Below are positions 820-2,355 of a stretch of DNA of 2,355 bases, in pieces. Position 1 is the stretch's first letter. Each line of letters opens with the position of its first letter. Below the pieces are notes generated by a model. That model did not search any database. It saw only the letters and a list, made by a program, of their open reading frames with translations, and was not told where the DNA came from. The position numbers and the translations under genes are program-made. Source of the DNA: Escherichia coli (GTDB lineage Bacteria; Pseudomonadota; Gammaproteobacteria; Enterobacterales; Enterobacteriaceae); NCBI RefSeq assembly GCF_003334405.1, contig NZ_QOWM01000037.1; one strand, given 5' to 3'.

Positions 820-2355
820 TTCTTAGCCCTTGCCGGAAAACCCAGCTTCCCTGTTTTCTTATCCTCAAGGACAAGAACTGTATCATACGTTCCACCACTT
901 TTCTTTTTAAATCCCTTAATCAAATCGGTTTTCCCTGATTTAACCAGTTTTTCGGCCTGTGCCTGGGTGATTTTCTTACCAGAAAACTCACTCCAGATTT
1001 TAAATTCACATCCGGTACAGAAATAACCTTTCGGCCTGATAACAATATGTTTACCACAGGAAGGGCAGGGAGAGTCCAGGCGTTGAAACTGCCCTGCTGG
1101 CGCAGCGGGTTCAATCTTCATCTCGCCCAGGTCAACATCAGAAATCATGCCTGTTAGTTCACCGTACAGATCATTAATAAACTGTTCAACCGTCAGGTCG
1201 CCATTTTCTATGGCAGCCTGCTTTTCAGACCATAATGCTGTCATATCAGGATTAACCGCTATACCAGGCAGGGCATCAATAAGCGCATATCCGGTATCAG
1301 TAGGAATAAGTTTCCCTTTTTCCAGCGTGATATAGTTTCTTTTCTTCAGCGTTTCCAGAATGGCTGCGCGGGTAGCTGGCGTACCAATGCCACCATGTTC
1401 ATCTTTTTTGTCTTTATCCTTATCCTTCAGTAATTTTTTTATCACTGGATCAGTGACAAAATCCGCGACACGAACAAGCGCAGCAAGCAAGGAGGCTTCG
1501 GTGAATAACGGCGGCGGTGTTGTTTTCTTCTCATTAACAATAACTTCTTTTGTCGTCAGTGTTTCTCCTGTGCGAATTTTACAGAGCAGTTCAAAAGCGG
1601 AATCATCATTATCTTCTGATTCACCTTCGTCTGTGGTTTCCGCGCCAATAAACGCCTCAAATCCGCTGTCAGTTGTTTTTCTGGCACGGGCATAGAACGA
1701 CTCATCACCACACTGAATGGCAACCGATACTTCCTGGTATGCTTTTTCAGGCATGAACTGAACAAGATAGTGTTGTGCGATCGCCAGGTAAACATTGCGC
1801 TCGTCGGTGCTGAGTGCGTTAACATCAGGCACACTGGCGGTAGGGATTATCGCAGTATGCGCAGTCACCTTTGCACTGTTAAACGCTTTGCTTTTACGTG
1901 AAGAATCAATATCCAGCGACTGAGGAAAGACTGATTTCAGGGCATCGATAACCTGCGGCGCTTCGCTGAATTGTTCATCAGAAAGATATGAGCAATCAGA
2001 GCGGTTATAAGTAATCGCTTTATATTTTTCACGTAATTGTTGCGTAATATCCAGCGTTTTTTGTGCCGTCATTTTGAACTTTTTGTTCATGTATTGCTGG
2101 AGTCTGACCAGGTTAAACGGCAACGGCGCAGCCGTTTTTTTATCATCAGTTGCTGCCGCTTCAACTGTAGCCGGTTTTCCTGCAAGGGATGCTGCCGTTC
2201 CGTCTGCCCACGCTTTATCAAGTAATTTACGGTCTGTCAGCGGAGCAAATTCCCCTGGCTTCCAGTTCGCCCTGATAACATCAGCACCACGCTGAAAAAC
2301 TCCGGTCATGGTGTAGTAAAAACTGGATTTATGGTTCTGGTTAGCACGGGTACGA
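816..2355 (-). CDS. topB: DNA topoisomerase III-like (type IA topoisomerase), partial: N-terminal part including the Toprim domain lies beyond the right edge of the window
   Basis: Minus-strand ORF 816..2309 (497 aa from the first in-window ATG) stays open in the same frame from 2310 to the window edge (no stop in codons 2310..2354), so the gene is truncated by the window. The translation carries the Topo III-type active-site motif [12 protein letters not shown] (catalytic Tyr codon at 2007..2009), the conserved type IA motif GIGTPATRA (1365..1391), and a C-terminal C4 zinc-ribbon CPSC-x13-CTGC (1008..1067) followed by a Lys-rich tail. Stop codon TGA at 816..818. Confidence 0.9.

Follow-up and report, generated by a model that had tools for sequence, protein, structure and literature searches.

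The right edge of a 2,355-nt sequence window truncates topB, a known backbone gene of IncX4 plasmids

The reading frame that runs off the right edge of the 2,355-nt stretch of DNA analysed here (hereafter 'the window') almost certainly belongs to an intact topB gene, 717 codons long, on a conjugative plasmid of the IncX4 type, and the 497-aa open reading frame (ORF) that can be called inside the window would then be an artefact of ORF calling. Continuity of the gene to the right of position 2355 is read from two public records identical to the window and from more than 1300 that are related to it. As judged from these sequence comparisons, the open frame at the edge continues a gene present in more than 1000 plasmid records and is not a chance feature.

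Within the window, the incomplete gene lies on the minus strand. The ORF listing of the 2,355-nt window includes a 497-aa minus-strand ORF at 816..2309 that opens with MTGVF, its ATG being the complement of the plus-strand CAT at 2307..2309. Minus-strand translation of window positions 816-2354 yields 512 sense codons followed by a terminal TGA, with no earlier stop; 15 of these in-frame sense codons (2310..2354, residues 206-220 of the full protein) lie upstream of the ATG and leave the frame open to the edge, in agreement with the original prediction that the topB frame continues beyond the window and that the ATG at 2307..2309 is not its true start. Base 2355 itself is the third and last position of codon 205, which specifies Asn in the full protein. 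The window thus holds the 3′ part of topB, encoding a type IA DNA topoisomerase of the topoisomerase III type, at 816..2355 (residues 206-717, with the TGA at 816..818), while the full coding sequence occupies 816..2969 in window-equivalent coordinates, so that the first 205 codons fall outside. The original prediction gave no strand; all of its topB coordinates refer to the minus strand.

The missing part of the gene can be read from complete plasmids. A megablast search of the window against the plasmids of PLSDB returned 1373 records, most of them for conjugative plasmids from Escherichia, Salmonella and Klebsiella, with the best match at positions 13803-16157 of NZ_CP070012.1, which is 100% identical across all 2355 nt. 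This record is a circular 32.6-kb E. coli plasmid that PLSDB types as IncX4, MOBP, MPF_T and conjugative. A second match of 100% identity over all 2355 nt was found in a collection of complete E. coli genomes (NZ_CP074772.1, a complete E. coli IncX4 plasmid). Both records annotate a single coding sequence here, for a 717-aa 'type IA DNA topoisomerase' (WP_001694195.1), and in both the frame remains open for 205 codons past the window edge, up to an ATG. This ATG, at window-equivalent 2969..2967, lies 614 nt past the window and 220 codons upstream of the internal Met221 codon at 2307..2309; the start had been expected 200-250 codons upstream, and it falls within that range in both identical plasmids. 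Two further features mark it as the start of the gene: it is the first start codon after an upstream in-frame stop located 8 codons before it, and an AAGGA Shine-Dalgarno sequence lies just ahead of it, within TAAAGGATAACAAA. Translation would accordingly be expected to begin at 2969..2967, with the ATG at 2309..2307 coding for an internal methionine.

The domain content of the extended protein matches this reading. In Pfam searches, the Toprim domain (E 1.4e-9) spans residues 3-131 and lies wholly outside the window, the Topoisom_bac core (PF01131; E 7.5e-97) spans residues 153-598 with its in-window part at 1176..2354, and the C-terminal topoisomerase repeat Toprim_Crpt (PF13342; E 1.9e-17) spans residues 653-709 (843..1013), all on the minus strand. 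Because the window starts at residue 206, it omits all of Toprim as well as the core's first 53 residues. The in-window product does lack Toprim, as had been claimed for it, and it does so only through the position at which the window ends: the rightward extension, in which a start codon and Toprim motifs had been expected, contains both in the plasmids of 100% identity, with E7 (in MRLFIAEKP; window-equivalent 2949-2951) and D104-P-D106 (in HAGDPDDEG; 2652-2660) aligning with the corresponding motifs of E. coli topoisomerase III. Toprim, E7 and D104/D106 are all situated beyond the window and are taken from the 100%-identical plasmid records. The catalytic tyrosine is, by alignment, retained inside the window: the Tyr321 codon, TAT, at 2007..2009 on the minus strand aligns with Tyr328 in the ITYPRSDCRYL motif of E. 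coli topoisomerase III, the active-site tyrosine of that enzyme. Further towards the C-terminus, a Cys4 motif, CPSC-x12-CTGC (residues 635-654; 1008..1067 on the minus strand), is a putative zinc ribbon with a weak Pfam zinc-ribbon match (E 0.19).

Family assignment follows the full protein rather than the fragment. The 717-aa protein scores above the NCBIfam cut-offs both for NF005829 (DNA topoisomerase 3; 625.5 against a cut-off of 597) and for TIGR01056 (topB; 533 against 515.75), which substantiates the earlier naming of the gene as topB. The 497-aa ORF alone scores below both (343.5 for NF005829 and 301.4 for TIGR01056), and a stand-alone 497-aa call therefore represents a shortened family member.

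The product would comprise, in order, the Toprim domain, a cleavage and strand-passage core carrying the catalytic tyrosine, the zinc ribbon and the C-terminal repeat. By homology to E. coli topoisomerase III, Tyr321 would cleave one DNA strand, the acidic Toprim residues E7, D104 and D106 would hold Mg2+, and another strand would be passed through the resulting gate, with decatenation or relaxation of plasmid DNA as the expected outcome.

The protein is identical to the TopB of IncX plasmids catalogued as WP_001694195.1 (IncX4), the in-window part being 100% identical at the DNA level to the two complete IncX4 plasmids. In a PDB sequence search, residues 1-610 of plasmid TopB match E. coli topoisomerase III (1d6m, 1i7d and 2o19, among others) over its residues 1-604, at E ~4e-116. 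Both proteins begin with MRLFIAEKP, and they share, besides this motif, HAGDPD.EGQLLVDEVL and ITY.RSDC.YL. Two regions differ. The decatenation loop, which is specific to topoisomerase III and presumably corresponds to residues ~502-519 of the E. coli enzyme, lies in a region that can be aligned to plasmid TopB (...GGIGT), in which the plasmid protein carries a Lys/Asp-rich stretch (residues ~514-524; window ~1398-1430) that includes 8 additional residues. The C-terminus (residues 635-709), with its Cys4 zinc-ribbon motif and Toprim_Crpt repeat, differs from that of the 653-aa chromosomal E. coli enzyme: the alignment ends at residue 610, and the C-terminal module of plasmid TopB (window 843-1067) is without counterpart in the aligned part. 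Both the insertion and the C-terminal differences belong to a protein that has already been catalogued. Carriage of such an enzyme on a plasmid has a parallel in TraE of RP4, another plasmid-borne topoisomerase III homologue; both are type IA, topoisomerase III-like enzymes found on conjugative plasmids.

One must consider whether the 497-aa ORF could nevertheless be a genuine gene, that is, a truncated, Toprim-less protein starting at the ATG at 2309..2307 under its own promoter and ribosome-binding site. Its sole support is the presence at that position of an ATG that opens an ORF of 497 aa, and we regard it as having almost no chance of being correct. The frame is open to the edge and, in both identical plasmids, through a further 205 codons, and the fragment, besides failing the NCBIfam cut-offs, would be without the metal-binding residues E7 and DxD. 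The 20 nt upstream of the Met221 codon (AATCCAGTTTTTACTACACC) contain no purine-rich Shine-Dalgarno sequence. In a consensus scan, no promoter-like site on the minus strand came up within 500 nt upstream of this ATG, the nearest lying more than 500 nt upstream and inside coding sequence. Promoter-like sites in the region are in any case at chance level (10 found vs 8.5 +/- 2.9 in shuffles), and the idea that an internal promoter and ribosome-binding site turn the 497-aa ORF into a genuine gene was rejected on the strength of that scan and of the missing Shine-Dalgarno sequence. A stop in frame directly beyond 2355, combined with a promoter and ribosome-binding site at 2309, had been named as the observation that would overturn the original prediction; what was found instead is a stop-free run of 205 codons and an internal ATG without such signals, and on the extended sequence the existence of a genuinely truncated gene is already effectively refuted. 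A related notion, that Met221 serves as a secondary initiation site for a Toprim-less, catalytically dead but DNA-binding TopB isoform that could modulate the adjacent Hha/H-NS silencing, strikes us as just as improbable. It finds no support in the sequence, with neither a Shine-Dalgarno sequence nor a promoter-like site at Met221, and conservation around this residue is poor when the protein is aligned with E. coli topoisomerase III.

A marginally less remote idea, to which we still assign very little weight, is that in the source molecule topB is disrupted a short way right of 2355, for instance by insertion of an IS26-type element or by a break in the assembly, and is a real pseudogene there. 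IncX4 plasmids do gain IS26 nearby, and a few related records match an edge-spanning query only in part (for example 39% for record H54 and 9% for record H55). Against this, both records identical to the window hold the intact 717-aa gene, and the 1201-nt edge-spanning query is covered to at least 80% in 1356 of the 1422 matching plasmid records (~95%), so that the great majority of related records are continuous across the edge. The edge position is thus not a recurrent structural breakpoint, and a breakpoint common to the relatives at this position was rejected. Interruption of topB by IS26 was likewise rejected, since the relatives carry the element at window 108-115, which is downstream of hns and outside topB. 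Simple truncation of an intact topB by the window edge accordingly remains the preferred reading.

The genetic surroundings of topB are those of an IncX plasmid. In the identical plasmid, a hypothetical gene upstream of topB ends 4 nt before the topB ATG, and hypothetical gene, topB, hha and hns form a tightly packed string on the same strand. Within the window, hha (68 aa; 613..819, minus strand) begins with a GTG that overlaps the TGA of topB in the tetranucleotide GTGA at 816..819, an arrangement that would allow hha to be translationally coupled to topB. Downstream of hha lies a plasmid gene of the H-NS family (154 aa; 131..595, minus strand), with AGAGGA 10 nt upstream of its ATG. The neighbours annotated in the identical IncX4 record are a replication initiator, a par-like ATPase, hns, hha, topB and taxB. 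Farther out, a gene for a 31-aa DinQ-like type I toxin, dqlB, is annotated ~580-670 nt to the left of the window in the identical plasmid (4327-4422 of locus L001).

This organisation can be set against published descriptions of the IncX backbone, in which topB is a known core gene (PMC11880322, PMC11796372) and a homologue of hns is placed immediately downstream of topB (PMC11796372). The window shares the described synteny, with topB upstream of an hns homologue, and the locus fits the backbone in its IncX replicon and in hns-topB synteny next to the pilX/tax transfer genes. The IncX2 plasmid R6K lacks an hha homologue (PMC11796372), which indicates that only some IncX subgroups have hha in the position between topB and hns. 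The authors of that study have also speculated, without presenting it as a result, that plasmid topoisomerase III could relieve the topological stress caused by Hha/H-NS bridging and thereby promote conjugation (PMC11796372).

Downstream of the hns stop at 131 (minus strand), the left end of the window carries a long palindrome (window 68-120) that is nearly perfect and rich in ACATACGTATGT units. The RNA of window 1-135, which holds the palindrome, has a predicted fold of -47.6 kcal/mol vs -25.4 +/- 3.1 in shuffles (z = -7.2), with a perfect stem of 14 bp. The palindrome may terminate transcription of the topB-hha-hns string or serve as a binding site for a protein. A clear T-run is lacking, a terminator scan did not detect the palindrome, and an Rfam scan of the window at a permissive E-value returned sub-threshold chance matches only (two miRNA models, both matching the palindrome at 77-122, and ALIL with 14.5 bits). 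In many IncX4 plasmids of ~33.3 kb, for example NZ_CP024132.1 (1616-2435 of locus L002), IS26 is inserted into the right arm of this palindrome, with window bases 108-115 duplicated on both flanks as an 8-bp target-site duplication; the coding sequences of topB, hha and hns are left untouched.

The significance of these observations is limited to annotation, and the edge effect itself brings no new biology: a gene caller applied to the window alone would wrongly report a Toprim-less topoisomerase of 497 aa. IncX4 plasmids are an important carrier family for mcr-1 and other resistance genes, and the topB-hha-hns string belongs to the conserved IncX backbone. The feature at the right edge is an ordinary truncation, by the end of the window, of an IncX4 backbone gene that is already known.
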